Numbered from the stretch's first letter, positions 1-21,610 are shown. The stretch is DNA of 21,610 bases from an uncultured Deinococcales bacterium (GCA_964247135.1 CAXTTL010000061.1:1-21610), one strand, 5' to 3'. The notes: a model not told the origin generated them from the letters alone. Program-made: numbers and translations.

Positions 1-2067
1 GGCGGTTTCTTTTTTTCTGGCTTTTGGTTTTTTCTCGCCCTCGATCACCATTTCTTTGATTTGCGACAATGACATTTCGCCGCTTTTTAAGGCTTTGAGT
101 TTTTCTTTTTGCATCACGCCAAAGCGGTGCTCTTCGTCAATAATCAACAAGCCCAAATTCTTAAACTCGAGTTCTGGACTGAGCAGCCTGTGCGTGCCAA
201 CCACAATGTCCACCGTGCCACGTTTCAAACCCTTGTAAACCGCATCCACGTCTTTTGGGGTGGTAAACCTCGAGAGTCCAGACACAATCACGGGCGTACC
301 TTCAAAGCGTTTTCGCAATGTCTCGAGGTGCTGATCTGCCAAGAGCGTCGTGGGTACGAGCACGGCAACTTGCCGCCCGTGAGACACAATTCGGTGCGCG
401 GCGCGAACGGCGACCTCGGTTTTACCGAAACCCACATCGCCCGAAACCAACCTGTCCATCGGCAAGCTTTTCTCGAGGTCTTTGTAGGTGGATTTGATGG
501 CTTGCGCTTGGTCTTTGGTGAACTCGAACGGGAAGTTCTTCTCGAACGCCTCATCCCATTCGTTCGTAATGTCGGGATAACTCGAGCCTGGTGTGGCTTG
601 ACGCGCCGCGTATTGCACCAGCAACTTCTGCGCGAGTTCTTCGGCGTTTTGACGGGCTTTCTCTCGAGCCTTCTGCCATTCGTTCTTGCCCAGTGTACTT
701 AAACGCGGCGGGTCATCGGTTGTGCCAGGATGCCGACGCAACAGTGGTAATTGCTCGACTGGCAAGAAAATACGGGCATCCGATGCGTATTTGATCTGCA
801 AATAATCCCTGGTCACGCCCAGAATCTGTCGCGCCTCGAGTCCCATAAACTGCCCAATGCCGTGCTCTGGGTGAATCAAATAATCGCCCATTTGCAGCGC
901 GGTGGCATCGCTGACGGGTGGACCTCGGAGTTTTCGGGCGCGAAGCACGCTGCCGCCCTGAAAACCGTAGAGCAATTCTTCGGTGACGACGGCAACTTTG
1001 GCGATGTGGTCAATAAAACCGCCCTCGCTGCAGCCTTTGACAAACGAAATCCGACCTTTTTCGGCTTCCGCCCGCCATTCCCAACCCCTTGGAATATCAC
1101 CCAAAACGTGCTGCTCGAGGTACGCACCCGTGCGTTCGTGCTTTAAGAGGGCAACCAAGCGATATCCCGCCTCGAGCCAAGCGGCGGCATCGTCGCGGAA
1201 CATGCGAAGCCGAGCGCGGTAAAACGGCAGCGTCTCGAGGTCAGAGGGGCGTTCTGGTAGCTCGAGCGGCGTGCGACCAAAGGCAATAACCTCACGGGTT
1301 TTCAGGTGCGCCCAGAGTCGTTGGTATTTTTTGGGACTTAAATAACCTTCAAAAAACTCTGGCGAATCGAGGTACACCCGACCTTTTAAACGCTCGAGTC
1401 TGGTGCTGTCCCAGGCAACCTCGGGAATAAAATCGCCCAGCGGACCCAGCCCAAAGGATTTGACTTTCTCGCCGTCCACACGCACAAACTCGAGGTCATC
1501 ACCAAAAAATTCGGCACGAACGACTTGGGATTTGCCGTTCAAATTCAAACGAATCTCGAGCGTGTCACCCAAAACCTTAAAGAAACCCTCGGTCTTGGCT
1601 AAATCACTTGTCTCGAGGTTTTCTTCGCGCTCGTACCCCAAATTCTCGAGCTTATCGAGGAATTCGTCACGCGAAAAACGCATTCCAGGTGCAAGCTCGA
1701 GCCTGAAGGCATCGGGTTGAGATGGGAAATCCTCGAGCGCTGTTTCGATGTCCAACAGCACGTGCTTGTGCAAATCCGTCCACTCGGCTATCTCGGGATT
1801 TAAACTGACCCGAGCGCCAAACAGCGGCGCATCGACGTACAACTTCAAACGCTCAGGCGTGGAAATCAGCACCCCGCCAGCATCCGCTGCAAATAGGGCA
1901 AGTCGTGCCACCTGAGAGAGTCCAGCGTGTAAGCCAGGCTCGAGCGGGGCTAAGTTTTCAGTGACCAGAGGCGCACGGGTTCCACTGCGGGTAGAAGCCT
2001 TCTCGGAAAGAGGTTTCTCACGCACAGCGACACCCGGCGACCCGACCTTCGGGGCAGTTCGCCGCAT
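1..2067 (-). CDS. mfd: Transcription-repair coupling factor Mfd (5' part; runs off the left edge)
   Basis: Read manually because it is absent from the ORF track. Frame contains [12 protein letters not shown] (helicase motif I) and [10 protein letters not shown] (motif II), and an N-terminus [27 protein letters not shown] resembling Deinococcus Mfd. ATG at 2067 lies 7 nt after TAGAAT; alternative ATG at 2076. Confidence 0.95.
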
Positions 2068-2129
2068 CGGAATCATTCTAACCTAAGTTGCTCGAGAATC
2101 AAGGGGTATTTTCACACGGAAATTTGGAA

Positions 2130-2399
2130 TCAGAGCATGTCTAAAATTCGGTCATACTCGCCGTGTGTTCCAATCCACCACCACGTTATTAAATTGTCCT
2201 CGAATAACCCGAGTGCGCGGTAATGCAATCCAACTCGAACAGAATACGTTGCGCTGTTTTCATCCACGCATTTAAAATGCGAACCTGGATGACGCGGGTT
2301 TTGAACAAACAACTGATACGAGGCTCGAGCTTGCTGCCGAACCTGAACAGGCAAATCTTGGTATAACTTCCAGAATTCTTTGGTTGTGTCCGAATTCAT
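2130..2399 (-). CDS. RelE/ParE-like type II toxin
   Basis: 89 aa with FWKLYQDLP..ARASYQLF..NPRHPGSHFK..YSVRVGLHYRALG..WWWIGTHGEYD, typical of this toxin family; ATGA overlap with the upstream gene's stop at 2396-2399. Confidence 0.8.
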   Translation of the reverse strand: MNSDTTKEFWKLYQDLPVQVRQQARASYQLFVQNPRHPGSHFKCVDENSATYSVRVGLHYRALGLFEDNLITWWWIGTHGEYDRILDML

Positions 2400-2611
2400 T
2401 CGCACTCTATGGCTTGTGTTTGACCAGCACGACGTTCAGCTCGAACTTTTTCTGCCATCGTTTGCAAGAAATCCTTTGATTCAGGACGAGCGAACGAAGC
2501 CTGCCATTTGGCTTCCTCGATTTCCTCGAGTAGCCGCATTGCAATTTCGTTCTGCTGCGCTTCAGGCAGATCATTTAATGACTCGAGCGCTTGTTGTAAG
2601 ACTTGCGTCAT
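2396..2611 (-). CDS. Putative antitoxin
   Basis: 71-aa helical acidic protein MTQVLQQALESLNDLPEAQQNEIA..EEAKWQASFA, translationally coupled to the toxin; TG-n-TACGCT extended -10 lies 6 nt before the ATG. Confidence 0.75.
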   Translation of the reverse strand: MTQVLQQALESLNDLPEAQQNEIAMRLLEEIEEAKWQASFARPESKDFLQTMAEKVRAERRAGQTQAIECE

Positions 2612-2712
2612 GCAAAAAGCGTAGCACAAGACGCTCGAGAATCAAGCGTCAAGTGTTACAGACTTGAGCGAGATGGATTTGAAGTTTGCTTTACAAGTGG
2701 CTCGAGGTGCGG

Positions 2713-2756
2713 TCTGCCCTCATCCCCAGCCCTTCTCCCAGCATGGGAGAAGGGAG
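2713..2756 (+). repeat. REP-like hairpin repeat, family A (left flank of DUF559 gene)
   Basis: TCTGCCCTCATCCCCAGCCCTTCTCCCAGCATGGGAGAAGGGAG, with internal stem CCCTTCTCCC/GGGAGAAGGG. Confidence 0.85.
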
Positions 2757-2790
2757 CTTGATTCGATTGTGGTTTGGGTAGAATATTTTT

Positions 2791-3153
2791 ATGGGACGTG
2801 GAATTTTGACGACGGTGGCACGAGTGAATCGGCGCAATGCCACACCAGCAGAGGAATATCTTTGGACGGCATTACGGGATAGAAAGTTGGATGGTTGGAA
2901 GTTCAAGCGACAAAAGGTGATTGGGAAGTTTGTTGCAGATTTTTATTGCCGTGAAGCAAAATTGATTGTCGAACTGGACGGCGCAATCCATGATGCTCGA
3001 GATGCCCAAATCGCAGATGCTTTACGCACCGAATTTTTGAAGGCAAGCGGTTATACGGTCATTCGATTTCGCAATGAAGAAGTTCTGAACAACGTACTCG
3101 AGGTTTTAAAAACCATCAAAACCAACCTTCCAAGCCCAACAAATAGCGCTTAA
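2791..3153 (+). CDS. DUF559 / Vsr-like PD-(D/E)XK endonuclease domain protein
   Basis: 120 aa with T.AE..LW..LR..L.G.KF.RQ..IG.F.ADFYC....L.VELDG..H and D..R..FL...GY.VIRF.NE; TAGAAT 6 nt before the ATG. Confidence 0.9.
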   Translation: MGRGILTTVARVNRRNATPAEEYLWTALRDRKLDGWKFKRQKVIGKFVADFYCREAKLIVELDGAIHDARDAQIADALRTEFLKASGYTVIRFRNEEVLNNVLEVLKTIKTNLPSPTNSA

Positions 3154-3156
3154 AGT

Positions 3157-3201
3157 CTCCCTTCTCCCGATGTTGGGAGAAGGGTCGGGGATGAGGGCAG
3201 A
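3157..3201 (-). repeat. REP-like hairpin repeat, family A (right flank, inverted relative to 2713-2756)
   Basis: Reverse complement TCTGCCCTCATCCCCGACCCTTCTCCCAACATCGGGAGAAGGGAG differs from the left copy by 3 substitutions and a 1-nt indel. Confidence 0.85.
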
Positions 3202-3417
3202 GTGGCATTTGCAGCTTTTCTTAAGAGACAAGTGCAAGGTGTTAGGTTGTCTCGAGTTTACCGATTTTGTTAAACTCGAGACAAAACTTCACAACGAATT
3301 TAGACCATACACTCGAGCTTTCGGCATCAACCCAAGTGCGTAAAGCATTTCCCTGGCATTCTGTGCTCGCTCGAGCATTTTTAAACTCAGGGTTTGCTCG
3401 AGGGTTACCGCCAGGCT

Positions 3418-4701
3418 TCAGTTGATCGGCTTACCGCCGATTTCAAACTTGTCCACCACGCTGGTCGAAACCTGGAAGTCGTAGTCAGGAATGTCGTCCT
3501 GCTCGGATACGACCTGACCTTTCACCAGCAGCTCGTGACCTCTGGTGCCCTCTTTGAGACTCAGGGCATTGGCTTTGAGTTTGGTGATCTCACCGCGAAC
3601 CAGACTCTCGCCTTCGCCTCCTTTGGTGCGGATGTCTTGATGGACAACAATGGAACCAAAGGGTTTGGACAGTTGGACGCCGATGCCTCCATCGCCGAAG
3701 GTCGTGATGCTCTGAAACTCGGCTTGCTGTAGTGACCCGTCATAAAGATTGAACCCGCGTGCACCAACCCCATGGGTTTCCAAAGGAGCTTGGACGGTCA
3801 GGGTCTCGAGGTCGCCAAAGTTCACGAAGCCAATCCCGCTGGGACCGTAGGATGTCACCTTGGCTTGGACCATCCAATCTTCAACCTTTCCCCAGTTGTC
3901 GAGCACCATGTCGTTGGGACCGTATGTTGTGACAGGTTCAGTATTGACCACCCGCTGAGCGTCTACTCCTGAGCCGATAAACACGGCGCCGGTGATGAGG
4001 TTGGAAATGCCCGGTGCAATACCGCCATCGGCATGAATTTCGCCAGTGGTCAGGCTTGTGAGTTCAATGCTGCCACCTTCCTCGGTTGGAGCCGGAGCTT
4101 TGCTGGGGTCGGTACCGGTCGGGATAAACCAGCCGCCGAACACGAACACGCCGCTACCACGCAAAGGTTGCTCCTTGCTGCCACCGGATAGATTCTCGAG
4201 ATCCACTGTCCAGCGGCTCGTTTTGTCCTGAGAGAAGTTGTACACGCTGATGCAGCCCAGCAGCACCTCCACTCCGAAGCCCGCCGGGCGGTGGGCAGCC
4301 ATCCGCGCGTCTGCCGCCTCCACATGAATGTCTTGTAAGTGGATGTGCCCTTGTCTGGACTGAGCGCCCTTCAGGTGAACACAGCCCACGGTGCGAAGCT
4401 TGCTGATCCGTAGTGTGCCGAGGTCAGCGACGTCGTCCGCAAGACCCAGCGCGATCTGAGCTTCGTCCGTAACGACTCGCAACCCAGAAACCTCATGGTC
4501 GGCGCTTAACATCAGTCCAGGCTGACCTGGCTTGAATTGTAGTTCAGCGTTTGGTCCTTCACCCCATAGTTGTGTACCAGGGGGCAGCTTGATGCTGGAC
4601 AGCCCAGTGATTCGGACTTCAACCACAATCCGGGTGGCTTTCTGATCAAGGGCAGTTTGCAGGCTAGCGGCGTCCTTCACGTGAACGGCAGTGTCTGTCA
4701 T
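3418..4701 (-). CDS. Hypothetical protein, Gly/Val-rich, possibly beta-helix-like
   Basis: 427-aa ORF with AGGAG RBS; recurring T.G....G motifs (TYGPN, SYGPSGIG, THGVGARG, TFGDGGIG); no catalytic motif recognised. Confidence 0.75.
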   Translation of the reverse strand: MTDTAVHVKDAASLQTALDQKATRIVVEVRITGLSSIKLPPGTQLWGEGPNAELQFKPGQPGLMLSADHEVSGLRVVTDEAQIALGLADDVADLGTLRISKLRTVGCVHLKGAQSRQGHIHLQDIHVEAADARMAAHRPAGFGVEVLLGCISVYNFSQDKTSRWTVDLENLSGGSKEQPLRGSGVFVFGGWFIPTGTDPSKAPAPTEEGGSIELTSLTTGEIHADGGIAPGISNLITGAVFIGSGVDAQRVVNTEPVTTYGPNDMVLDNWGKVEDWMVQAKVTSYGPSGIGFVNFGDLETLTVQAPLETHGVGARGFNLYDGSLQQAEFQSITTFGDGGIGVQLSKPFGSIVVHQDIRTKGGEGESLVRGEITKLKANALSLKEGTRGHELLVKGQVVSEQDDIPDYDFQVSTSVVDKFEIGGKPIN

Positions 4702-4902
4702 GGCAGTCTCCTGAACTGAGTAGAATGGTTATCGCGTGTTGAGGTCGACAACGGAGCATCAAAAACCTGAGCAGGAATCTGCAATTAGATTACCACCGAT
4801 CCACAATTTCTTTCAATATTTGAAGCGCTGAGTGCAGCGTTGGATTATTCTTCAATACTCTGGAAAATTTTCCTCACAACGTCAAGAATTCGCTGTCACT
4901 AA

Positions 4903-4926
4903 GGGCGCAGCAAGCAGCGCCCTTAC
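4903..4926 (-). repeat. GTAG-type REP, family B
   Basis: Minus strand GTAAGGGCGCTGCTTGCTGCGCCC, identical to 7813-7836 except at one base. Confidence 0.8.
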
Positions 4927-5063
4927 AACCCTGAAATACGTGACAGACGCGAATTAGCAAAAACATTCCGAACTGTTATTCTTTAAAGCTCAAACAATAA
5001 AGTTGACTGCCTAGACAGCACTCGCTTGGTACACCGTTGAGAACGTTTGTGGTTTTTTGGAGC

Positions 5064-5172
5064 GAAGCGGTTCTGCCCGAAGGTGCGTTTTAGAACCAAG
5101 AAGCGGTTCTGCCCGAAGCGACCCAGGCCCGTCAGCGATTCCGCCCGTTAGGTGCGTTTTAGAACCAAGAAG
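5064..5172 (-). repeat. Two tandem copies of a 36-nt mini-element, one carrying a 33-nt internal insertion
   Basis: GAAG boundaries at 5064, 5100 and 5169; minus-strand unit CTTC-TTGGTTCTAAAACGCACCTTCGGGCAGAACCG-CTTC; homologous to 15915-15954. Confidence 0.85.
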
Positions 5173-5195
5173 CGGTCCACACTGCGTTAGGTGTT

Positions 5196-5489
5196 TTACA
5201 GCACAACCTTTTCAAAATGCTCCACAATCGGAAACGGATCGTAAAAATGATGCAATAAAGAGCGCCATTCCTGGTATTCACTCGAGCCTCTAAACCCTAC
5301 CGTGTGATCCTCGAGCGTTTCCCATTTTACCAGCAGCACATATTTGTTGGCTTGCTCGAGGCATTTTTGCAGTTCAACCTCAATAAACCCGTTCATGCTC
5401 GAGATGATTTTGGAGGCTTGACGAAACGCGGTTTCAAATTCTGTCTCGAGGTTTGGTTTGATGTGCAGCATGGCAACTTCTAGAATCAT
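5196..5489 (-). CDS. Antibiotic biosynthesis monooxygenase (ABM) family protein
   Basis: 97 aa MILEVAML..FETAF..ASKII..GF..Y.LLVKWETLEDHTVGFRGS.EYQEW..LLHHFYDPFP.VEHF; start moved to the ATG at 5489. Confidence 0.9.
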   Translation of the reverse strand: MILEVAMLHIKPNLETEFETAFRQASKIISSMNGFIEVELQKCLEQANKYVLLVKWETLEDHTVGFRGSSEYQEWRSLLHHFYDPFPIVEHFEKVVL

Positions 5490-5505
5490 GGGGTTAGTAT
5501 AGGTT
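5490..5505. promoter_or_regulatory. Bidirectional overlapping -10 elements for two leaderless genes
   Basis: 16-nt gap GGGGTTAGTATAGGTT: TAGTAT-N5-ATG on + and TATACT-N6-ATG on -. Confidence 0.65.
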
Positions 5506-6264
5506 ATGAACATTGATTTGAACGCCGACGCTGGCGAATCGTTTGGGGCTTTTCGCATGGGGCGTGACGAGGAGTTGTTTGATTTCATCAGCACGGTCAA
5601 TGTGGCGTGCGGTTTTCATGCGGGTGATCCAATCACGATGCAAGCCACGCTCGAGCTTGCCAAGCAAAAGAATGTGGCGGTTGGGGCGCATCCTGGTTAT
5701 CAGGATTTGGTGGGTTTTGGACGCAGGATTCTCGAGGCAACACCTGAACAAGTCTATGCGGATACGGTCTATCAGGTGGCGGCGTTGGCGGGTTTTGCAA
5801 AATTGGCAGATATGAAATTAACGCATGTCAAAGCCCACGGTGCGTTGTCCACTCGAGCTTGGGTTCATGCGCCGACCGCCGAAGCGCTGGCTCGAGCGAC
5901 GAAAGATTTTGACCCGAATTTACCGTTGATGGTCTTGCCTGGGACGTTTCTCGAGTCTGAAGCGCAAAAGTTAAAAGTTCCGATGCTGATTGAGGCTTTC
6001 CCAGAACGGGCGTACATGCGCGATGGTCGGCTTGCGCCGCGTTCAATGGCAGGCTCGAGCATTCACGACCCGAAAGAGGCGGCGAGACGTGCGGTGCAAA
6101 TGGTTAAGGAGCATCGCGTCGAGGCGATTGACGGCGGTTGGTTTGAAATGCAGCCGCAAACCTTGTGCATTCATGGCGACAACCCGCACGCTCCCGAAAT
6201 TGCCAAAGAGGTTCGTGCGGCGCTCGAGGCTGAGGGCATCACCGTTTCACATTCGGGACTTTAA
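5506..6264 (+). CDS. pxpA: 5-oxoprolinase subunit A (LamB/YcsF)
   Basis: DLNADAGES, NVACGFHAGDP, GAHPGY.D..GFGRR, HVKAHGAL and TLCIHGD motifs. Confidence 0.95.
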   Translation: MNIDLNADAGESFGAFRMGRDEELFDFISTVNVACGFHAGDPITMQATLELAKQKNVAVGAHPGYQDLVGFGRRILEATPEQVYADTVYQVAALAGFAKLADMKLTHVKAHGALSTRAWVHAPTAEALARATKDFDPNLPLMVLPGTFLESEAQKLKVPMLIEAFPERAYMRDGRLAPRSMAGSSIHDPKEAARRAVQMVKEHRVEAIDGGWFEMQPQTLCIHGDNPHAPEIAKEVRAALEAEGITVSHSGL

Positions 6265-6266
6265 CC

Positions 6267-7805: not shown

Positions 7806-7812
7806 AAGAAAC

Positions 7813-7836
7813 GTAGGGGCGCTGCTTGCTGCGCCC
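7813..7836 (+). repeat. GTAG-type REP, family B
   Basis: GTAG-GGGCGCTGCTTGCTGCGCCC: tetranucleotide followed by an imperfect palindrome, intergenic. Confidence 0.8.
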
Positions 7837-7877
7837 TTTTGGCAACCATTCTCGAGTTTGAAACAAAAGGAGCAACT

Positions 7878-8687
7878 ATGGAACAACGTTTTAAAAACAA
7901 AGTCATTCTCATCACGGGCGCGGGCAACGGTATCGGTCGCGCCATTGCGAACCGCTACGCGCTCGAGGGTGGCAAGGTCGTGGTGAACGACATCAAACCA
8001 GAATTGGTTGATCTGGTGGTCAACGAAATCAAGGCGGCTGGCGGTACGGCGCTGGGTTTTGTCGGGGATGCCTCGAGCAAAACCGAAATTGACTCGATGT
8101 TTGACGCCACCGAAAAGCAGTTTGGGTATGTCGATGTGGTGGTCAACAACGCGGGTTTGACCAGCGATCAACGCCATTTTTTGAATGCCGACGAAGCCTG
8201 GTGGGACAAGTATTTGCGCATCAACCTGAAAAGCGCTTACCTCTGCGCCTTTCGAGCCGCAAACATCATGGTGCGGCGGCGCAAGGGCGTGATCGTGAAC
8301 GTCTCGAGCGGCGGGGGAACAAGGGCGCACCGTGGGTTTACGGCGTATGACGCGTCCAAGGGTGGCATCGAGGCGTTCACGCGTTCGCTGGCGCTCGATC
8401 TGGGTTTCTACGGTGTTCGGGTCAACTGCCTTGTGCCTGGGTTGATCAACACCTATGGCTTGGAAGGCGACGATCTGGCAGAACGCGAGAAGGTTGTGCC
8501 GTTGCGTCGTTACGGCACAGCCGAGGACATGGTTGGCGCGGCAACGTTTTTGGCGTCCGACGATGCGGCGTACATCACGGGGCAGTGCCTTGTGGTGGAT
8601 GGCGGTGTGCTGGCGCAGCAGCGCAGTGCCAACGTGGACACCTTTCCGCTCTCCAATTTTCCAGACATTGCCCATGACCTCGAGTAA
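7878..8687 (+). CDS. SDR family NAD(P)-dependent oxidoreductase (FabG-like)
   Basis: TGAGNGIG, NNAG, YDASK and ITGQ.L.VDGG motifs; AAGGAG RBS before the ATG at 7878. Confidence 0.93.
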   Translation: MEQRFKNKVILITGAGNGIGRAIANRYALEGGKVVVNDIKPELVDLVVNEIKAAGGTALGFVGDASSKTEIDSMFDATEKQFGYVDVVVNNAGLTSDQRHFLNADEAWWDKYLRINLKSAYLCAFRAANIMVRRRKGVIVNVSSGGGTRAHRGFTAYDASKGGIEAFTRSLALDLGFYGVRVNCLVPGLINTYGLEGDDLAEREKVVPLRRYGTAEDMVGAATFLASDDAAYITGQCLVVDGGVLAQQRSANVDTFPLSNFPDIAHDLE

Positions 8688-8705
8688 AACGTTTGGGGGT
8701 TAACC

Positions 8706-9224: not shown

Positions 9225-9248
9225 AATCACTTGACTCGAGCGAGGTGT

Positions 9249-9926: not shown

Positions 9927-10002
9927 CTCGACCAGTATAGCTGCCAATCTGTTGTAGAAAAGGTTTTTGAAATACCTTGCTGTTCGAGTAAAGGGGTCAA
10001 TA

Positions 10003-10959: not shown

Positions 10960-11016
10960 TTGACTTTTGAACGCGTTCAGTTTAGTATCTGAACATGTTC
11001 AATTTGAATGCGTTCA
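10960..11016 (+). promoter_or_regulatory. Sigma70-type promoter with three TGAA-N4-TTCA operator-like palindromes
   Basis: TTGACT-N17-TAGTAT-N6-ATG; palindromes TGAACGCGTTCA (10968), TGAACATGTTCA (10990), TGAATGCGTTCA (11005). Confidence 0.75.
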
Positions 11017-11705: not shown

Positions 11706-11790
11706 AGCTTTACAATCCGCCGCTAAATCTCGAGCCTTCAAACTCAAAAAGCTCGAGCTGGGAAAACACTGCCCAAAACAGGAGGTTGTT

Positions 11791-12195: not shown

Positions 12196-12329
12196 TTTTT
12201 AAGCTTGAAATTCAAGGTCCTTCTCAGCAAGAGCAAGGCTGGAAAAACATTGCCCAAAAAACTGTTAGCGAATCTCGAGTTCAAACGCCATCCAACCCTT
12301 CGCCCTCTCGAGCACAAAGGAGCAACACC

Positions 12330-12805: not shown

Positions 12806-15800
12806 TTAGCCCAGTGTTTTTTGACCAATTTTTGGTTTCAAAAAAGGCGCTTCAATGTACTTGTACGACAAACTTGCCGCCCCAAACGCCAGCGCCAACG
12901 CCACACCAGAAATCAACAAATGCTCGCTGAGGCTCGAGATGCCAAAATACTGGTAATTGCTGTTAAACGTTAAACGAATCAACTCGAGGATTAAATAATG
13001 CCAGATGTACAAGCCAAACGAAATCTTGGCGGTGTACCGAAAAAAAGTGTTGTCGAGGAGTCGCCCAAGGATTCTCGAGAATGGCAGGGTGGACAGTTGA
13101 ATGGCGATTAACGCGGGAAAAATGGGGTAGAAATACGGTTGGTTGCCAAGGCTGAAGGCGAAATCTGGGGCGTAACGTTGTGTGAACAAAAACACCATCG
13201 TGACGACAAAAGCGGTTAGTGCAATGCCGTCAAAAATCCAACTCGAGCGGATTTTGAGGTTGCGCAATTTGACAATAATTCCTGCGGCGATCACGCCCAG
13301 AATGTAATGCCCGAACATGCCGACGGCGTTGTAATTGGGCATCCAATATTTTGCGCCGCCAATAAGCCCATGATCCCAACCTCGGTTGACGCTGTCGGGA
13401 ATCAGGTCGGTGATGATGGCTTGATGCGCAATCAACGTGACTGCAAGCACGCCAAACCAGAACAGCAAACCTTGACGAAATGAAGCTCGAGCGGCAAGCA
13501 GTTGAAACATTGCCCACATTGCAATTGGCATCATGGCGTAACACAGCACTTCAAATCCGATGCTCCACAGTGGACCATTCAGGTCGGCGGGGAAGAGCGT
13601 CACGTAATGCAGCGCGGAGGTGAACGTCAGGGCAGAAACATAACGGATGAAGACGGCTTGGGCGTCGGGCACAAAGAACAGGGTGCAAATTACGCTGATG
13701 GTCAGACTGGCGTAAAACCCTGGCACAATCCTGACCGCACGACGACGCGTGAACTCGAGCATGTTGGGGAAATCGCGGCGCTCGAGAAAATTTTTCCAGA
13801 AGGGCATGGATAAAAGCATTCCCGAAAGCACAAAAAACGCGCTGACACCGACTTGTCCGGTCATGATGAAGGCTTGGGCGTCTTGAATAAACTTGCTTTG
13901 CTCGGGGCGGTTTAAACGCTGCGAAAGGTGATGCGCCACCACCATCAAGCACGCCATCGCCCGAATGCCATCCGCGCCGGAAAGGCTGGCGGTGCTCGAG
14001 GAATCCATGATGCGAGCGATTATTTTCTTAAACGGGTCAAACCAAGTCAAAGCCGTATTGCTCGAAATGTTCATGCCCTTGCCGATCTGCCCAGCCGAAA
14101 ATAAAAACAAGATAAACGCGGGCAAACTGGCAATCGCAATGCCAACCGTGAAGGCGCTGCTCGAGGTTGAGAGGTTGCTCATGACTTGTGTGACCATTTG
14201 CGTGTCAGAATTTTTCAGGATGGCGAGGGCTGCGGAGGCATTGTTCCAAACCGTAACGAAGGTCAGTAGACCGAGTGTGACCAACACTGGACGCGCCAGG
14301 GGCATAACAAGGCTGGCAAAGATTCGCAGTTCACTCGCACCATCAATCCGTCCCGCCTCGAGTAAACTTTTTGGCACGGCGGCGGTCAAATACTGACGAA
14401 TCAAAAACACGCCAAACGCGCTGACCGTGGCGGGAACCCAGACGGCTCGAGCCTGATCCATCCAACCAATCACGCCAACCACCAGCACGGTTGGAATCAA
14501 ACTGAGCAGCGACGGGAAGAGCATCACGCCAAGGGTGATGGCGTACAGAACATTGCGCCCTTTAAACTCGAGAAAGGCGAAGCCGAACGCGGCAAGGCTG
14601 GCGGTGATGATCGCGCCAACGGCAGCCAGGGTGCAGATGTAAAAACTGTTCCAGAAATTGCCCCAAAAGTGCGGCACCTGCTCGAGCAAGAATTTGAGGT
14701 TGTAACTCAGCGAATCGCCAAGTTGAAAGTCGATGCTCGAGGAGGGATAATTTCGGGTGGCGTTGAAAAACATCATGACGATGGGCAAAATTGACAGAAT
14801 AATGCCAAACAACACCAGAAATCGCAAAACGATTTTTGAGGTGTTGGAAAAACGAATGGCTGACTGGTCACTCTCGAGGTGTGCGCTGGTGTCCAAGCTC
14901 GAGAAGTTGCGTCCGATTAGGGCGTACACCACCAGCACGATGGCGACCATGCCGAAGAAATACACCATCGTCATTTCGCTCGCCAAGCCCATGTCAAAAT
15001 CCCAGAAACCCGTGCGGAAAATATAGGTCGGCAGGTCGGTGGTGCTGGGGTTGAAGCTGCTCGAGTACCAGGCGTTGGTCGCGCCCTGAAAACCGCGCAA
15101 GAAACTCATGGTGAAGGCGACAAAAATCATCGGGCGCATCAAGGGCAAAGCAACGCGCCCGAACAAACCCCAGAAGCCCGCGCCGTCGAGTTGCGCCGCT
15201 TCGTACAAGCTGCGCGGAATCGAATTGAGCACCATCAAATACAACAAAACATTCCAACCCACCGTGCCCCACAAACTCACGAACGCCACCCGAGCATCCT
15301 CGAGGTACAAACTGGTGTTGGGAATGAACGTGCCCAAAAGTGGCAGGTGCGAAAGCCAGCCAAAACCAGCATCAATAAACTGCCAGACGAACAAGAAAAA
15401 CGTGCTTAAAACCGAAGCCGCCGCGATGCTCGAGGTCATGTACGGCAGGAAAAAAATGGTTCCCAAAACGCCCTGAATGCGTTTGAATGCCATGTGCAAA
15501 ATAAACGCCAACGGAATGGCAATCAGGTGTTGCGGGATGGCGCTGAACACCGCCTGACGAAGCGTGCGCAACAACGCCGACCAGAAATTGGGATCGTTGA
15601 CAAACGTATAATTGTACGCCCACAAACCCGAGAATTTCAGGTGGTTTAAACCCGCCACAGGGTTGTACTCAAAAAAACTGACGAACAACGAGAACGCCAA
15701 GGGCGCAATGCCGAACGCCAGCAACAAACAAAAAAACGGTGCGATAAAACCATAACCCACCCAACTCGAGCGCCACGGTTTACGGGCGGGTTGGCTCGAG

Positions 15801-15826
15801 GTTTTGGCTGGGAGACTGAGGTTCAC
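12806..15826 (-). CDS. Fusion: carbohydrate ABC permease 1 + permease 2 + acyltransferase_3 (OafA-like)
   Basis: Single 1006-aa ORF with AGGAG RBS and GTG start. Two EAA loops (IPRSLYEAAQLDGA, VPKSLLEAGRIDGA), then AT3 motifs DGIRA..LMVVAHH, GVSAFFVLSGML, F.RRR.VRI.P, LWSIGFE, ISFGLYIWH, SYKYIEAP. Confidence 0.85.
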   Translation of the reverse strand: MNLSLPAKTSSQPARKPWRSSWVGYGFIAPFFCLLLAFGIAPLAFSLFVSFFEYNPVAGLNHLKFSGLWAYNYTFVNDPNFWSALLRTLRQAVFSAIPQHLIAIPLAFILHMAFKRIQGVLGTIFFLPYMTSSIAAASVLSTFFLFVWQFIDAGFGWLSHLPLLGTFIPNTSLYLEDARVAFVSLWGTVGWNVLLYLMVLNSIPRSLYEAAQLDGAGFWGLFGRVALPLMRPMIFVAFTMSFLRGFQGATNAWYSSSFNPSTTDLPTYIFRTGFWDFDMGLASEMTMVYFFGMVAIVLVVYALIGRNFSSLDTSAHLESDQSAIRFSNTSKIVLRFLVLFGIILSILPIVMMFFNATRNYPSSSIDFQLGDSLSYNLKFLLEQVPHFWGNFWNSFYICTLAAVGAIITASLAAFGFAFLEFKGRNVLYAITLGVMLFPSLLSLIPTVLVVGVIGWMDQARAVWVPATVSAFGVFLIRQYLTAAVPKSLLEAGRIDGASELRIFASLVMPLARPVLVTLGLLTFVTVWNNASAALAILKNSDTQMVTQVMSNLSTSSSAFTVGIAIASLPAFILFLFSAGQIGKGMNISSNTALTWFDPFKKIIARIMDSSSTASLSGADGIRAMACLMVVAHHLSQRLNRPEQSKFIQDAQAFIMTGQVGVSAFFVLSGMLLSMPFWKNFLERRDFPNMLEFTRRRAVRIVPGFYASLTISVICTLFFVPDAQAVFIRYVSALTFTSALHYVTLFPADLNGPLWSIGFEVLCYAMMPIAMWAMFQLLAARASFRQGLLFWFGVLAVTLIAHQAIITDLIPDSVNRGWDHGLIGGAKYWMPNYNAVGMFGHYILGVIAAGIIVKLRNLKIRSSWIFDGIALTAFVVTMVFLFTQRYAPDFAFSLGNQPYFYPIFPALIAIQLSTLPFSRILGRLLDNTFFRYTAKISFGLYIWHYLILELIRLTFNSNYQYFGISSLSEHLLISGVALALAFGAASLSYKYIEAPFLKPKIGQKTLG

Positions 15827-15893
15827 TTCGGGTTGCTCCTGGTGTCTCGAGTGTACTGGGGGAATATTAAGATTGAACGATAAGCAATTGCTC

Positions 15894-15977
15894 GGTCTAT
15901 CCTCATCCCCAACCCTTCTTGACCATAAAACGCACCTACGGGCATGGTCGCTTCTCCGAACATCGGGAGAAGAGGGA
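15894..15977 (+). repeat. Solo family A hairpin repeat interrupted by the 36-nt mini-element
   Basis: GGTCTATCCTCATCCCCAACCCTTC[36 nt]TCCGAACATCGGGAGAAGAGGGA; removing the 36 nt restores a near match to 2711-2756 and 3157-3201. Confidence 0.85.
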
Positions 15978-16037
15978 TTTAGTGCTTTGTTGTGGGGCTG
16001 AATTTCGCTCGAGAAAAATCAATTTAATAAAAGGTTG

Positions 16038-16095
16038 GTAGGGTGCGCTGTGCGCACCAGAGCATGTGAATAACGGTGCGCGAGGCGCACCCTAC
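16038..16095. repeat. Inverted GTAG-REP doublet (REPIN-like)
   Basis: GTAG-GGTGCGCTGTGCGCACC ... GGTGCGCGAGGCGCACC-CTAC, just downstream of the GH43 stop. Confidence 0.85.
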
Positions 16096-16100
16096 GATTT

Positions 16101-17738
16101 TTAATTCTCGAGGTATTCAAAGAAATCAAAATCCGCATGGTGTCTTGTGCCTGCCAGGTCTTGAACGCACAGGGCAATGAATGTTCCCGTGAACGCCAGC
16201 CCGTTGCAGTAATCGTCTGAAAGGTGACTCGAGTCAAAGGCGGGTCCAATCTGCTGCCAGGTTTGGTTGTCGCTCGAGTACGAGAATTGGAAGGTTTCAC
16301 GGTTGAAGCCCACGCGCAAATAAATGCTGCCTTCGCTCGAGATTGGGATTTCTTCTGCCAGCGGTTCGGAGTAATAACCTTGGTCGCAGACCAGCAAGTT
16401 TAGGGTTTTGCCCAAATCCTCATCCCTCGAGACGCGCAGGTACACCCAGTGTTGGCTGTCGTAGTAGGCTGCCATGCCCGCCATCTGTTGGAAGTGTTGG
16501 GGGTCAAACGCCAGGCTGGTGGTGGCTTGGGCGTGGAAGGCTTGCAGGCGGCGTCCGATCAAGCTTTGGTGGTGGAGGCTGCCCAGCGACTCGCGCCCGA
16601 ACAAGCGCAAGTGTCCTGGGCGTTCGGTCAGTGTCAACCAACTTGGGTTGGCAGGTTCGCGCAGGGTTTGCCAAGCAATCTCCAGGGTTGGCGCGTCAAA
16701 ATCGTCCCGTGTGTTTGGTACTGGGAATGGGTGAGGCTCGAGCTTTGGTGCAATGACTTGAAGGCTTGGGGTGTTGCCACCGCCTGCCAGTCGCACCCAG
16801 TCGTCTTGTCCCCACTCGAGTTTTTGAATGGATGTTTCGCGCCCAAGGTTGCAATAACCGCCGCCCAATCCTGGTTCGAGCGGTCGTCCGCACAAATGCA
16901 CGATGTACCATTCATCGTTTTGGGTTTGCACGATGCTGGCATGACCCGATTTTTGCAGCTCGAGTTCTGGGTGTTGGTTGCTGGTCAAGAGTGGGTTTTG
17001 TGGGTGAATCTCGTATGGTCCTTCGAGATTTCTCGAGCGTGCCAATGTCGCGGCGTGCTCATAGGTTGTGCCACCTTCGGCAGTCAGCAGGTAATACCAG
17101 CCGTTGCGCTGGTAAACGTGTGGACCTTCGTTCACGCCAATGCTTGAGCCTTTGAAAATATTTTTGACCGCACCCACCAGTTTTTGTGCGACCGGATCAA
17201 ACTCTTGCAGGTAAATTCCGCCGAACGGATTTTTGCCTTTTCGGTGATCCCAGACCATGTTGAGAAACCATTTGCGTCCATTTTGGTCATGAAACAAACT
17301 CGGGTCAAAGCCGCTCGAGTTTAAATAAATGGGTTCTGACCAAGGACCTTCAATATTGCTGGCGGTCACCAAATAATTGTGCGTGTCTTTAAACGGCGCG
17401 TGCATACTGAAGGCTTTAACATCGGTGTAAATCAGGTAAAACGTGCCGTTATCAAAACTTAAACACGGCGCCCAAATCCCGCCCGAGTCGCCGTTGCCGC
17501 GCATGTCCAATTGCGATTTTCTCGAGAGTGGTTGGGTCAAAACGCGCCAGTGTACCAAGTCCCTCGAGTGATGAATTTGCACGCCAGGGAACCATTCAAA
17601 GGTGCTGGTGGCAATGAAATAATCTTCACCGACGCGCAGGATGCTGGGGTCTGGGTTGAAACCGCGCAAGATTGGGTTTTGAATCAAGGTTTGAGGCTCG
17701 AGTGTGGTGATGGTTTGGGGTTGGGTGAGGGTGGTCAT
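16101..17738 (-). CDS. GH43 beta-xylosidase / alpha-L-arabinofuranosidase (XynB-like)
   Basis: NPILRGFNPDPSI, WAP, GFDPSLFHD, EGPH motifs and a C-terminal beta-sandwich ending FTGTFIALCVQD..ADFDFFEY; no signal peptide. Confidence 0.95.
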   Translation of the reverse strand: MTTLTQPQTITTLEPQTLIQNPILRGFNPDPSILRVGEDYFIATSTFEWFPGVQIHHSRDLVHWRVLTQPLSRKSQLDMRGNGDSGGIWAPCLSFDNGTFYLIYTDVKAFSMHAPFKDTHNYLVTASNIEGPWSEPIYLNSSGFDPSLFHDQNGRKWFLNMVWDHRKGKNPFGGIYLQEFDPVAQKLVGAVKNIFKGSSIGVNEGPHVYQRNGWYYLLTAEGGTTYEHAATLARSRNLEGPYEIHPQNPLLTSNQHPELELQKSGHASIVQTQNDEWYIVHLCGRPLEPGLGGGYCNLGRETSIQKLEWGQDDWVRLAGGGNTPSLQVIAPKLEPHPFPVPNTRDDFDAPTLEIAWQTLREPANPSWLTLTERPGHLRLFGRESLGSLHHQSLIGRRLQAFHAQATTSLAFDPQHFQQMAGMAAYYDSQHWVYLRVSRDEDLGKTLNLLVCDQGYYSEPLAEEIPISSEGSIYLRVGFNRETFQFSYSSDNQTWQQIGPAFDSSHLSDDYCNGLAFTGTFIALCVQDLAGTRHHADFDFFEYLEN

Positions 17739-17759: not shown

Positions 17760-18776
17760 TTATTTGGCTGCTTGAAGCACACGCTTGAGGGCGTCGTAAG
17801 CCGGTTTTGGCGCATAATTGCCGTCAAAAATCAGTGGTGCTCGACCCGCCCGCCACGAGTGCGCGTCGGTCAAACCCCACATCATGAACGCCGAACATTT
17901 GACCGCCAAGCACGTCTCGAGCATGTCGCCATAAACTTTGGCTTGGCGCGTCAGGTGTTCACTGGCGGGGTAACCTGGGCTGCTTTGCACGTCCAATTCG
18001 GTGATTTGTACTTCCAAACCGAGGTCTTTAAAACGCTGGTAATTCTCGAGCACGTGTTGAGAGACCACGTTAAAACTGGCATCGATATGGGCTTGAAACC
18101 CCACACCGTCAATCGGTACGCCCTTGGCTTTGAGGTCTTTGACAAGCGTATAAACTTCGTCCGATTTTTGGTTGATGCCGTCGGTGTTGTAATCGTTGTA
18201 AAAGAGTTTGGCGCTCGGGTCGGCTTCGTGCGCCCAACGAAAGGCAAGCTCGAAGTAATCCTTGCCAATGGTTTTTAAAAACGGCGTGTTGCGCAAGCCG
18301 CCACTGTCGCTGATGGCTTCGTTGATGACATCCCAAGAGTCAATCTGCCCTTTGTAGTGCTTGACCTCGGTTTGAATGTGATCCTTCAGCGCCGCCATCA
18401 TGGTCTCGCGGTCAGAGATTTGCAGCACCCAACTGGGCAGTTGTTCGTGCCAGACCAGGGTGTGACCACGAATTTTTTGCTTGTTTTGCTGCGCAATTTT
18501 GACAATCGCATCGGGCAATGACCAAACGTATTGGTTTGGGGCGGGTTGAACCGCAGCCCATTTCATGGCGTTTTCGGGCACGACCATGTTGAACTCTTTT
18601 GCGAGCGTTTCGGCGTATTCAGGCTCGAGGTCTTCAAACAAGGTTGGTCCAACGGCGACACCAATGTTGACGCCTTTGGCGCTGGCAAGCGAACGCAAAC
18701 TGGGGGTGGTTTGTGCTCGGGTGGCGCCGAGTGCCAAACCGAGCGCGATGGGTAGCAACCATTTGGCGTGTTTCAC
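17760..18776 (-). CDS. GH10 endo-1,4-beta-xylanase, exported
   Basis: Signal peptide; PENAMKW, RGHTLVWH, WDVINE (acid/base), NDYN, DGVGFQAH, ITELD (nucleophile). Confidence 0.95.
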   Translation of the reverse strand: MKHAKWLLPIALGLALGATRAQTTPSLRSLASAKGVNIGVAVGPTLFEDLEPEYAETLAKEFNMVVPENAMKWAAVQPAPNQYVWSLPDAIVKIAQQNKQKIRGHTLVWHEQLPSWVLQISDRETMMAALKDHIQTEVKHYKGQIDSWDVINEAISDSGGLRNTPFLKTIGKDYFELAFRWAHEADPSAKLFYNDYNTDGINQKSDEVYTLVKDLKAKGVPIDGVGFQAHIDASFNVVSQHVLENYQRFKDLGLEVQITELDVQSSPGYPASEHLTRQAKVYGDMLETCLAVKCSAFMMWGLTDAHSWRAGRAPLIFDGNYAPKPAYDALKRVLQAAK

Positions 18777-18823
18777 GGGTTTCTCCTTGGAATATTGATT
18801 CGAGGTTTGAATTGATTTTTAAA

Positions 18824-19771
18824 TCAAGTTTTGACGCCGCCAGAGGTTAAGCCTTCAATCATTTGGCGGCTGGTCAGAATAAACAGAATCAACAGTGGCA
18901 GCACCGTCAGGGCGACGCCCATCATGACCGCGCCAAAATCGACGTTGGTGTTGGTGCCACCGCCGCCGATTAAACGCAGCAAAGTTTGCAGGGTTTGGGT
19001 TTCTTGAGAGCGGAAAATAATAATCGACAGAATGTATTCGTTCCAGATGCCAATGAAGGTCACCAGTCCGAGCGTGCCGAGGGCTGGACGGGTGAGCGGC
19101 AAAATAATTTTCCAATAGGTTTGAAATTCGGTGCAGCCGTCAATGCGTGCGGCTTCGACCAGTTCTTTGGGAATGGCGCTCAGAATATACTGTCGCATTT
19201 GAAAGATACCGAAGGCGCTCGCCATGCCAGGGAACCACAAGGCTTTGGGTGAACCGATCCACAACAGGCTTGGAAACCAGGGCAGCACGCTATGAATGGC
19301 GGTGTCGAGCGGTGCGAACAATTGGCTGAGCAGTGAGAGCACCAGATAGAGCGGAATCAAATTGAGCGCTCCAGGAATCGCCATCGTCGCCAGCAAAATG
19401 CCAAATAACCGGTCTTTGTATTTAAACTCGTACATCGCAAAGCCGTAACCCGCCAAGGAACAAAAAAACAATTGGGTGGCGGTGGTCACAACCGACAGGT
19501 AGGTGCTGTTCCAAAAAATACGCCAGAACCGTCCTTGGGTCACCTCCATCAGCGCCTGATAGTTGTGCAGCAAGGAATTTCCGAACCACAACGGCGGCGG
19601 AAACCTAAAAATATTGTCTTTGGGTTGCGAGGCAAAAACAAACATCATAAAGAGCGGTAAGACCATCAACAAACCACCGATGAAAACGATAATCAATGCC
19701 GTGTAATTGGTCGGGATTCTCGAGGTTTGCTGGGTTTTGATGCGCTTGCCAGTTGGAATCGTGATCGCCAT
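18824..19771 (-). CDS. Carbohydrate ABC transporter permease (MalG-like)
   Basis: SLAGYGFA, IPKELVEAARIDGC EAA loop, C-terminal IEGLTSGGVK; ATG lies 1 nt after the upstream stop. Confidence 0.92.
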   Translation of the reverse strand: MAITIPTGKRIKTQQTSRIPTNYTALIIVFIGGLLMVLPLFMMFVFASQPKDNIFRFPPPLWFGNSLLHNYQALMEVTQGRFWRIFWNSTYLSVVTTATQLFFCSLAGYGFAMYEFKYKDRLFGILLATMAIPGALNLIPLYLVLSLLSQLFAPLDTAIHSVLPWFPSLLWIGSPKALWFPGMASAFGIFQMRQYILSAIPKELVEAARIDGCTEFQTYWKIILPLTRPALGTLGLVTFIGIWNEYILSIIIFRSQETQTLQTLLRLIGGGGTNTNVDFGAVMMGVALTVLPLLILFILTSRQMIEGLTSGGVKT

Positions 19772-19772
19772 G

Positions 19773-20744
19773 TCAGTCTGCCCTTCCGCCACGGAAAATC
19801 CGGTTGTTGATGATCGTCATGACGATGATGATGGCGAACAAGACCCACGAAATGGCGGCAGCCAGTCCAAAATCAAGATCGGTGAAGGCGGTCTTAAACA
19901 GGTACATCATGGTCGTCCGACCGGCGTTGTTCGCGCCGCCGTCCTGCCCGACCAGCGTGAAAGGCTCGAGGAACAGTTGCATACTGCCGATGATGGTTAA
20001 GGTGACGGCGTAAAAAGCCATCGGGCGCACCAGCGGCAGGGTGATAAACCGAAATTGCTGCCAGCGGTTGGCGCCGTCAATCGCGGCGGCTTCAAAGAGT
20101 TCGAGGGGAATGGCTTGCATGGCTGACAGGTACAAGATCGTGTTCCAGCCTGTGTAACGCCAGAAAATCACCAGTGCCACCGACGGTTTAATCCAGAACG
20201 AACGCCCCAGCCAATTGATGTTCTCGCGTGGGAACAAACCGCCAAGGATTGGAATTTGATGCAGTTGCAAGAGTGCCCAGTTGAACAAACCGTTGCGTTC
20301 GGAAAACAGCAAGCCAAACACCACACTAATCGCCGCGATTGATGTGATGAACGGTGCGAAGTAAAGGGCGCTCAAAAAACCTTTGAGGCGTTTGAGGGTG
20401 TTGTTGAGCAAATAAGCCAGCGGCAGGGCGACCAGGTGCTGTGGAATGCCGCCCAGAATTCCCAAGATTGCGGAGTTGACCAAGGACGTTTGGAAGAACG
20501 TGTCGTCCTGAATCAGATAGCGGTAATTGTCAAAACCGACAAACTTGATGCCGCGCAAACCGTCCAATGGATTCCAACGCGTCAGTGAAATATAAAACGA
20601 AAAGATGTTCGGGAAAAAACTAAAGATAACGTACAGAATAAAGAAGGGGGCAATAAAAAAATATGGCGCGTATCTGCGTTGCCAGTTGGCGTAACGATAC
20701 TCTGGAGGTACAATATTGACTTGCTTGGTGCGCGAAAGAGCCAC
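19773..20744 (-). CDS. Carbohydrate ABC transporter permease (MalF-like)
   Basis: FVGFDNY, WRYTGWN, IPLELFEAAAIDGA EAA loop, FGLAAAISW; AGGAG RBS and GTG start. Confidence 0.92.
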   Translation of the reverse strand: MALSRTKQVNIVPPEYRYANWQRRYAPYFFIAPFFILYVIFSFFPNIFSFYISLTRWNPLDGLRGIKFVGFDNYRYLIQDDTFFQTSLVNSAILGILGGIPQHLVALPLAYLLNNTLKRLKGFLSALYFAPFITSIAAISVVFGLLFSERNGLFNWALLQLHQIPILGGLFPRENINWLGRSFWIKPSVALVIFWRYTGWNTILYLSAMQAIPLELFEAAAIDGANRWQQFRFITLPLVRPMAFYAVTLTIIGSMQLFLEPFTLVGQDGGANNAGRTTMMYLFKTAFTDLDFGLAAAISWVLFAIIIVMTIINNRIFRGGRAD

Positions 20745-20906
20745 AGGTTTCTCCTGACTGATCAGAGTGTCTTGCAGGTTGCAGCAAAACTCGAGCTGCG
20801 GTTGTTGTTTTTTGAAATGTTCAAAACTTGAAATAAGAGATTGATTCTTGTTTTATGGTCTTCGTGAATTTAACTCGGGCTGCTCGAGTAAGGATTTTAA
20901 CTTTCG

Positions 20907-20942
20907 CTCGAGCAACGACTTGGTTCAGGGTCGTTGCTCGAG
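20907..20942. terminator. Intercistronic stem-loop after the SBP gene, closed by CTCGAG pairs
   Basis: CTCGAGCAACGAC-N10-GTCGTTGCTCGAG; position typical of an mRNA-stabilising or attenuating hairpin. Confidence 0.7.
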
Positions 20943-20998
20943 ACGCTAGAGGTTGAAGAAGCGCAAAGGAGGATTTTACGCTTCCCAAAAAGAGGGCT

Positions 20999-21610
20999 TT
21001 AGCGGCGGGCGCGTTTGTCGATTTCGCTGCGGGCGTCGGTCAAGACTGTTTTGATGTCTGCGCCTTCATCTAAAACTTTGCCCAAGGCGGTTTGTACGAT
21101 GGTTTCGGCGACACTATCGTACTTGTTGACGTCAATTGGTTTGATGCGTTTGGCGGTGGCTTTCCAGAGCAGACGGGCTTTTTGACCGCCCAAGAAAGGC
21201 ACTGGTTCGTTAAAGCTCTTGTCGCCCCAAGCGCTGTTGAGTGCTGGGAATGCGCCATTGCTCTTGAAGACGGCAATTTGTTGTTCGCGGTTGAGGGTCA
21301 TGTACTTGATGAACTCCCAAGCCTCTTTTTTGTGTGCCGAAGCGGTCGGGATCGAGTAGAACGAGCCGCCCCATGAGGCGAATGCGCCGTCTGGAAGGTC
21401 TTGAACGCGCCACAAGCCTTTGGTGTCTGGCGCCATCCAGTTTTGGAAGTGACCCTGCAACCATGCGCCCGAGAATTGCGTGGCGACGGTGCCGCCCTTG
21501 AAGCCCTCGTACCATTCGTTGGTCCACTCGCCGATTTTGGCGTCGATGCCAGCTTCGCGGATTTTCTTGGCAATCGTGAAGGCTTTGACAAAACGGGCGC
21601 TGTCTGGTCC
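20999..21610 (-). CDS. Carbohydrate ABC transporter solute-binding protein (3' part)
   Basis: Frame is open to the right edge; G.WRV..LP.G.FASWGGSFYSIP...HKKEAWEFIKY..GAFPAL; directly upstream of two permeases. Confidence 0.9.
   Translation of the reverse strand, partial: GPDSARFVKAFTIAKKIREAGIDAKIGEWTNEWYEGFKGGTVATQFSGAWLQGHFQNWMAPDTKGLWRVQDLPDGAFASWGGSFYSIPTASAHKKEAWEFIKYMTLNREQQIAVFKSNGAFPALNSAWGDKSFNEPVPFLGGQKARLLWKATAKRIKPIDVNKYDSVAETIVQTALGKVLDEGADIKTVLTDARSEIDKRARR

Follow-up and report, generated by a model that had tools for sequence, protein, structure and literature searches.

CTCGAG as a 6-bp highly iterated palindrome of a family of uncultured Deinococcales, with a tentative link to adenine methylation

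In an entire family of uncultured Deinococcales, the hexamer CTCGAG serves as a genomic 'self word' of 6 bp and is a highly iterated palindrome in the true sense. The stretch of DNA analysed here (21,610 bp; GCA_964247135.1, CAXTTL010000061.1:1-21610), referred to as the window, is contig C61 of G000, a metagenome-assembled genome (MAG) of 5.09 Mb in 386 contigs (GC 52.7%, 84% complete, 1.8% contaminated). Relatives matched by protein (90-92% identity) are titled 'MAG: Deinococcales bacterium'. A first-pass annotation of the window had put the number of CTCGAG copies at about 138, and the recount gives exactly 138, or one per 157 bp. In 100 dinucleotide-preserving shuffles of the window the mean is 3.58 and the maximum 9, and 138 was reached in 0 of 100. 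The whole genome holds 33,925 copies (6.66 per kb), which makes CTCGAG its top hexamer by more than twofold. A pressure specific to this sequence works at the level of the DNA; it operates in genes in every reading frame, outside coding regions and in restriction-modification (R-M) islands that were acquired horizontally and have long been resident.

The genome-wide observed/expected (O/E) ratio of CTCGAG in G000 is 24.8 under a Markov model of order 0, 35 at order 1, 14.4 at order 2, 3.45 at order 3 and 1.24 at order 4. The last value is no refutation of the excess because the 5-mers, which are the parameters of that model, already hold the CTCGAG signal, and the maximal-order null was therefore dropped as a test. 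CTCGA is followed by G in 67,850 of 77,426 cases (88%). Among the sixteen NTCGAN words, CTCGAG is the only inflated one, with 67,850 both-strand counts versus 242-4,290 for the others. A background in which all CTCGAG sites have been masked predicts 1,129-2,580 copies versus 67,850 observed (both-strand counts). The Markov comparison named in the first-pass annotation thus has a divided outcome, in which order 4 absorbs most of the signal and the excess returns once the sites are masked. The bases flanking CTCGAG carry at most 0.07 bit per position, so the word is exactly 6 bp long and not part of a longer repeat; this rules out a longer repeat or a repetitive extragenic palindromic (REP) element as its source.

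Relative to the 17 open reading frames (ORFs) of the window, the sites are distributed as follows:

1..21610: 138 CTCGAG copies, of which 61 read CTC-GAG (Leu-Glu), 11 read xCT-CGA-Gxx, 33 read xxC-TCG-AGx and 33 lie outside ORFs

The occurrence in all codon phases, already remarked upon in the first-pass annotation, extends to the genome as an excess in each frame. A crude gene set of G000 was defined by taking the longest ORFs that do not overlap, with a minimum of 200 codons (3,143 genes, 3.87 Mb in total). These genes contain 25,269 CTCGAG copies versus 3,426 (standard deviation 61) in five within-gene shuffles of synonymous codons, a 7.4-fold excess that persists under a codon-aware model; shuffling of codon order gives an expectation of 1,469. 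The excess is not confined to one frame, the counts being 15,485, 3,873 and 5,911 versus 2,668, 243 and 514 under the null (5.8-, 15.9- and 11.5-fold). The dipeptide Leu-Glu occurs 20,086 times in the proteome versus 8,523 expected (O/E 2.36), and 15,485 of these pairs (77%) are spelled CTCGAG, while the O/E of Glu-Leu is 1.01. In DNA without any 70-codon ORF (633 segments, 73 kb, GC 42%), 461 copies were found versus 11.8 expected, a density of 6.29 per kb. The codon shuffle, the all-frame excess and the ORF-free density all bear out the earlier statement that protein constraint cannot explain the word. Synonymous codon choice gives way to this pressure, which has also inserted Leu-Glu pairs into the proteins by the thousand.

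The sites are also conserved. When G000 is aligned with G005, a genome of the same genus (297 kb, 85% identity), 1,643 of 2,070 CTCGAG copies (79%) are kept, which is rank 1 of 1,517 hexamers (mean 43%, runner-up 72%). Where Leu is retained, CTC has an unchanged third base in 93.4% of cases within CTCGAG versus 64.0% elsewhere, and where Glu is retained, the corresponding values for GAG are 94.3% versus 71.4%. Outside called genes, CTCGAG is kept in 75.7% of cases versus 42.6% for all hexamers; sites in phase 1 are less well kept (139/204). The dip in divergence around the sites is exactly six bases wide, with a mismatch of 0.05-0.08 inside versus 0.14-0.16 from ±4 bp outward. All three transition types are evenly represented among the decay products of the sites (71 : 57 : 51), a spectrum which fits N6-methyladenine (m6A) or no mark and does not fit a 5-methylcytosine hotspot.

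The six genomes of the genus are approximately equidistant (86-90% identity). In a small sample of 41 kb covered by at least two relatives, and with a star-shaped tree assumed, G000 has 25 private sites versus 20 private absences, which points to turnover at equilibrium. Loss of CTCGAG sites is about 5-6 times slower than change at neutral positions, and gains approximately match decay, giving a steady state near one site per 150 bp. Spacing in G000 is near-exponential (mean 148, median 108), with pairs less than 30 bp apart at half their expected frequency and zero cases of a spacing of exactly 6, which would yield GAGCTC. The 3-bp codon period is the only periodicity seen, without helical phasing, although the short contigs test long periods poorly. 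Only 24 of 2,358 windows of 2 kb contain three CTCGAG copies or fewer, and these are mostly of low GC. A two-gene R-M island of foreign composition (GC 0.38-0.40) carries 0-1.3 copies per kb, and older low-GC R-M islands carry 4-8 per kb.

The trait is graded across the order and is extreme in the family of G000 (f1), with Meiothermus-, Marinithermus- and Truepera-like lineages showing a milder form. In samples of 2.5-20 kb from eight family genomes (GC 46-62%), CTCGAG is the top hexamer in every one, at 4-8 per kb, and all 18 of the other sampled genomes of the family hold 838-4,448 copies of GCTCGAGC each. The survey was extended by whole-genome counts in 150 other genomes of the phylum. Counts per genome are 2,224-10,639 in family f2, 1,424-6,708 in family f4 and 3,336-12,522 (1.4-3.4 per kb) in genera g13-g15. 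Thermus-like genomes (n=27) have 1,455-2,803 copies, approximately the level of the GAGCTC control, and the word is strongly avoided in the Deinococcus-like genus g7 (77 genomes, 26-1,010 copies each). In a sample of one Thermus-like genome (G022:C1:1-20000), all 20 TCGA tetramers sit within CTCGAG (58 TCGA expected), so that TCGA is avoided outside CTCGAG; a homologue of the Marinithermus methylase described below, at 56% identity, is encoded in the same genome.

Methylation of CTCGAG has been measured in cultured members of the order, and the link to these published methylomes is the new element of the present analysis. The SMRT (single-molecule real-time) sequencing data in the supplementary files of Blow et al. 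(2016; PMC4752239) list three type II m6A methylases for this word, each without a restriction partner. These are M.Mru1279II of Meiothermus ruber (Mrub_2385, 99.5% of sites methylated), M.Mch9957IV of M. chliarophilus (annotated as a type I methylase subunit, 94.1%) and M.Mhy14884I of Marinithermus hydrothermalis (Marky_0034, 94.6%). For M. silvanus, those files list no CTCGAG motif (PMC4752239). Where the main text of that study takes up CTCGAG, it does so only for Nocardia replication origins, with mention of neither these genera nor the abundance of the word (PMC4752239). Genome G025 was matched to Marinithermus hydrothermalis and G038 to Meiothermus ruber, partly via the position of the methylase gene, and both located TaqI-like methylases sit among housekeeping genes:

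G025 (single contig, 2,269,167 bp), 34-35 kb: methylase with Eco57I and TaqI_C domains, between aminotransferase and release-factor genes
G038 (single contig, 3,097,457 bp), 2.4375 Mb: TaqI-like methylase with amidase, TldD and holA as neighbours

The G038 enzyme lies 68 kb from a type I methylase, which agrees with the locus-tag distance 2385-2453. CTCGAG shows the behaviour seen in G000 in these lineages as well, though less strongly. In 220-kb samples taken from G025 and G030 no hexamer is commoner (2.6-2.8 per kb), and the word exceeds the synonymous shuffle 1.9- and 3.3-fold, with an excess in every frame; the Leu-Glu O/E is 1.44-1.54, and GAGCTC is at its null. Between G038 and G030 (54 kb aligned), CTCGAG is the best-kept word (136/155, rank 1 of 572 hexamers).

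The maintenance of CTCGAG could thus be methylation-linked, with the word being read through N6-adenine methylation as in the cultured relatives, a tentative reading to which we assign a probability of roughly 40%. N6-adenine methylation would mark CTCGAG and let the word be read; methyl-directed repair, or recombination and natural transformation favouring marked kin DNA, would then keep and spread the sites. The same scheme is now proposed for the cyanobacterial palindrome HIP1 (highly iterated palindrome 1). This model is the best supported one because cultured relatives methylate CTCGAG, and it is weakened because the methylase is missing in the family in which the word is densest.

The observations that weigh against methylation-linked maintenance come from G000, from its family and from other lineages. 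Neither a TaqI-type specificity domain (TaqI_C) nor a homologue of either located CTCGAG methylase was found in G000, a MAG 84% complete in which methylase specificity is unreadable from sequence, so that absence of a cognate methylase is not proven. Most of the methylases that were found there adjoin a recognised or putative nuclease gene, and none is orphan-like. Selected candidate genes were profiled over 31 genomes. Among the 18 family genomes, orthologues of the Marinithermus-type enzyme occur in none, a distant full-length homologue of the M. ruber-type enzyme occurs in one, TaqI_C occurs in six, and no methylase orthologue group is common to all. In G011, a closed genome of the family, neither a PF01555 methylase nor a TaqI_C protein is present. 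Genomes G021 and G029, with 1.7-1.8 CTCGAG per kb, are likewise without TaqI-like enzymes, and the CTCGAG excess is slight or absent in those Thermus-like genomes that hold close homologues of the Marinithermus enzyme. The earlier suggestion of an XhoI/PaeR7I-like or TCGA-type orphan methylase was accordingly not borne out in G000 and did hold, in the published SMRT data, for three cultured species of the order. The XhoI nuclease family (Pfam) was not found in G000 either, in a weak test whose model matched none of 14 control genomes.

The individual methylases of G000 were considered as drivers and rejected. That of C36 (19235-21059) is paired with a PvuII nuclease, the D12-class enzyme of C320 with a weak SacI-like ORF, and those of C207, C4b, C14, C178 and C189 lie in two-gene low-GC cassettes. 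C112, C21 and C192 encode large multi-domain enzymes rather than orphan CTCGAG methylases; C21 and C192 are presumably MmeI-like, given an N-terminal motif, and the 1,499-aa methylase of C112 is fused to a long C-terminal region that may be read as helicase-like. Orthologues of the C36 methylase were found in 5 of the 18 family genomes, of C207 in 9, of C4b in 6 and of C14 (close orthologues) in approximately 3-4. A D12 'group A' methylase seemed conserved, and in G000 a different cassette fills its slot between an inosine-uridine nucleoside hydrolase gene and sua5. That slot holds a C5 methylase and a 287-aa ORF in G000 (C14:35994-37982) and a D12 methylase with an unknown ORF of 372-397 aa in G005 (C6) and G002, which looks like an R-M cassette swap at one site.

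A scan of G000 ORFs of at least 150 codons for the motif (D/N/S)PP(Y/F/W/H) left 46 candidates, 20 of which were run against Pfam, with 8 already known. It yielded one new gamma-class methylase with an adjacent nuclease:

C51:8405-10599: gamma-class adenine methylase of 514 aa (motifs FQTP, EPTCG and NPPW, no Pfam match), beside a 217-aa nuclease (NCBIfam NF052465)

Over 7,950 homologues of this methylase family, at 45-59% identity, are spread across phyla; both genes are present at 71 of 80 metagenome loci. CTCGAG is not specially depleted on the contigs of these 80 loci (141 observed versus 205 expected); the enzyme is probably not CTCGAG-specific, since its host contigs do not avoid the word. 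The most depleted palindrome on them is CCTAGG (20 versus 205 expected), and CTAG words are depleted generally.

Many other 6-bp palindromes are nearly absent from G000. GAGCTC, which is CTCGAG with its letter order reversed, has 0 copies in the whole genome of 5.09 Mb and 0-1 in each of the eight family samples of 2.5-20 kb. At C320:1061-2985, a D12-class methylase gene is followed by a 364-aa ORF, and the pair is kept in G005 and G011 (75-83% identity), where the G011 counterpart of the second ORF has a weak SacI nuclease match (E 0.0078, below cut-off). Further scarce words are GGGCCC (1), CGGCCG (3), AGGCCT (4), CGTACG (5), GGATCC (7), CCGCGG (11), CAGCTG (15) and GCATGC (17). The PvuII nuclease-methylase pair (C36:19235-21059) fits the CAGCTG deficit.

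The first-pass annotation had inferred that a methylation/repair ratchet, an uptake signal or a nucleoid-protein site was shaping this genome. A DNA-level pressure is upheld by the results above, whereas a ratchet of the Vsr type is disfavoured. Vsr (PF03852) was not found in G000, and the one-letter variants of CTCGAG, which would be the one-mismatch precursor words, are not depleted (O/E 0.5-3.2; transitions 1.2-3.2). This pattern disfavours Vsr-type correction and corresponds to decay from a large pool of sites, and very-short-patch repair was rejected as the driver.

The missing methylase could instead be taken at face value. The densest iterated palindrome known in bacteria would then be kept without a cognate methyltransferase, by an unknown reader of plain CTCGAG such as an uptake or recombination factor or a chromosome protein, and the CTCGAG methylases of Meiothermus and Marinithermus would be more recent additions to a self-word system that the phylum already had; we regard this as possible, if doubtful. 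CTCGAG might also act as a methylation-independent self-recognition signal in transformation or recombination, which we consider unlikely, though by no means far-fetched. The machinery would prefer CTCGAG-rich DNA, kin DNA would replace site-poor alleles, and 'molecular drive', as proposed for uptake sequences, would lift the density to equilibrium. Members of the phylum are naturally transformable, which speaks for such a signal, but known uptake sequences are 9-12 bp long, non-palindromic and present at about one per kb, and Thermus reportedly takes up DNA without sequence preference. The similar density in coding and non-coding DNA, the near-random spacing, the approximate match of gains and losses, the paucity of sites in DNA of foreign composition and a family of 18 genomes in which no conserved methylase was found would all be expected of a transformation signal. 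A 6-bp word, however, discriminates poorly per site, and no receptor candidate turned up, although competence genes were not searched. Recent work on HIP1 also points to transformation (GBE 2026, PMC13756078; bioRxiv 2024.09.10.611283).

It is improbable that CTCGAG is the binding site of an abundant DNA-binding protein involved in nucleoid organisation, compaction or segregation, with weak selection on each site. The constraint exactly 6 bp wide, the density of one site per 150 bp across GC 46-62% and the halved frequency of pairs closer than 30 bp would suit a bound protein, but the codon period is the only periodicity and helical phasing is lacking, no candidate protein was found, and selection per site at 34,000 sites would hardly be strong enough to override protein sequence. 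The invisibility of a cognate methylase in G000 could also mean that a past drive, such as an ancestral methylase ratchet, left behind an abundance that is now only decaying. This is very improbable, given that sites in the six genomes of the genus are still retained 5-6 times better than neutral positions, that private sites in G000 number 25 versus 20 private absences, and that the spectrum of one-site differences resembles balance rather than collapse. Scarcely credible is an excess that arises as a by-product of codon usage, a protein motif, a dispersed repeat or the target of a resident XhoI-type restriction system. Phase 0 (Leu-Glu) is indeed the largest class and the order-4 O/E is just 1.24; yet all frames and ORF-free DNA are enriched, the flanks lack the information that a longer repeat would bring, and the XhoI nuclease family was not found with the weak model available.

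Cyanobacterial HIP1 has to our knowledge gone unexplained for 30 years and has so far been the only lineage-wide example of its kind. The analogy with HIP1 drawn in the first-pass annotation is supported, as CTCGAG is abundant in all frames and in non-coding DNA and is conserved beyond its codons. HIP1 (GCGATCGC) and the alternate cyanobacterial HIPs are described as palindromes that are likewise hyper-abundant in all frames and in non-coding DNA (Elhai, 2015, PMC4390886; PMC5861425), and HIP1 sites are described as conserved beyond their own codons (Xu, Lawrence and Durand, 2018, PMC5861425), the same test having the same outcome for CTCGAG. In relatives of G000, CTCGAG too is the target of methylases that are listed without a restriction partner (PMC4752239). 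The two words differ in length (8 bp versus 6 bp), in phylum and in density, which is one per 150 bp for CTCGAG versus up to one per 350 bp as given for HIP1 (PMC5861425). HIP1 is reported to be periodic (PMC5861425), whereas CTCGAG lacks periodic spacing. The m6A mark on CTCGAG in relatives is made by TaqI-like or HsdM-like enzymes rather than by the cyanobacterial pair, and a conserved orphan methylase is described for HIP1 or its core (PMC4390886), whereas none was found in the family most enriched in CTCGAG.

M.Mru1279II, M.Mch9957IV and M.Mhy14884I share with the present case the word and the order, and their host lineages show a milder excess, frame-independence and site conservation; orthologues of the two located enzymes are, however, missing from G000. 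The uptake sequences of Neisseria and Pasteurellaceae resemble CTCGAG as genome-wide short words that occur in all frames, reshape peptides, are scarce in foreign DNA and stand at an equilibrium density, but they are longer, non-palindromic and approximately six times sparser than CTCGAG (6.7 per kb). The Dcm/Vsr system of Escherichia coli, with its CCWGG excess and CTWGG deficit, likewise illustrates that a repair bias can enrich the target word of a methylase; it differs in that the Vsr family was not found in G000 and one-letter variants are undepleted. From R-M systems of the XhoI/PaeR7I type the case differs in that a CTCGAG nuclease (by a weak XhoI model) and a cognate TaqI_C methylase were not found in G000. 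A literature search, with subscription journals outside its coverage, returned no paper on CTCGAG abundance. CTCGAG in Deinococcales is an independent second case beside HIP1, in another phylum, which is shorter, denser and strong enough to rewrite proteins. Its strength is graded within one order, the extremes being avoidance in Deinococcus-like genomes and a site every 150 bp. The milder form, with CTCGAG methylation already measured, occurs in cultured representatives whose genomes are complete (Meiothermus ruber, Marinithermus). Experiments can therefore address which factor reads words of this kind and whether it requires methylation, and the extreme family without a visible methylase is a natural counter-test.

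The following further features were recognised in the window:

2791-3153, plus strand: small DUF559 ORF (Vsr-like fold), adjoining mfd
3249-3260 and 3271-3282: perfect 12-bp inverted repeat with a 10-nt loop and one CTCGAG per arm
3251..3402: five CTCGAG copies (starts 3251, 3275, 3312, 3370 and 3397) between the DUF559 ORF, which ends at 3153, and a convergent ORF, which ends at 3418
12806-15826, minus strand: 1,006-aa ORF with ABC permease domains (BPD_transp_1, two stretches) and an Acyl_transf_3 acyltransferase domain
17760..21610, minus strand: site-poor stretch comprising a GH10 xylanase gene (2.9 CTCGAG per kb), two ABC permease genes (2.1 per kb each) and a solute-binding protein fragment (0)

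The five intergenic copies at 3251-3402 that were singled out in the first-pass annotation all lie between these two convergent ORFs, and the inverted repeat at 3249..3282 looks like a terminator hairpin made of two CTCGAG copies. The site-poor stretch is present in same-genus genomes at 81-86% identity and is therefore not a recent arrival; the membrane proteins it encodes may be the cause of its low CTCGAG density. The 1,006-aa ORF would be an unusual permease-acyltransferase fusion, provided that the ORF call is no artefact. DUF559 was rejected as a Vsr-like driver of the word, because its distribution does not follow the trait: 16 of 18 family genomes carry it, and so do 3 of 3 genomes that avoid CTCGAG, but none of the 3 genomes of family f2. 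G000 holds 4 copies of the DUF559 family and relatives hold up to 11, one with internal stops. Five short intergenic segments (3148-3220, 4850-4990, 5056-5172, 15880-16000 and 16035-16110) have counterparts of 75-100% identity on dozens of contigs, in each of the five same-genus genomes, and are dispersed REP-like repeats.

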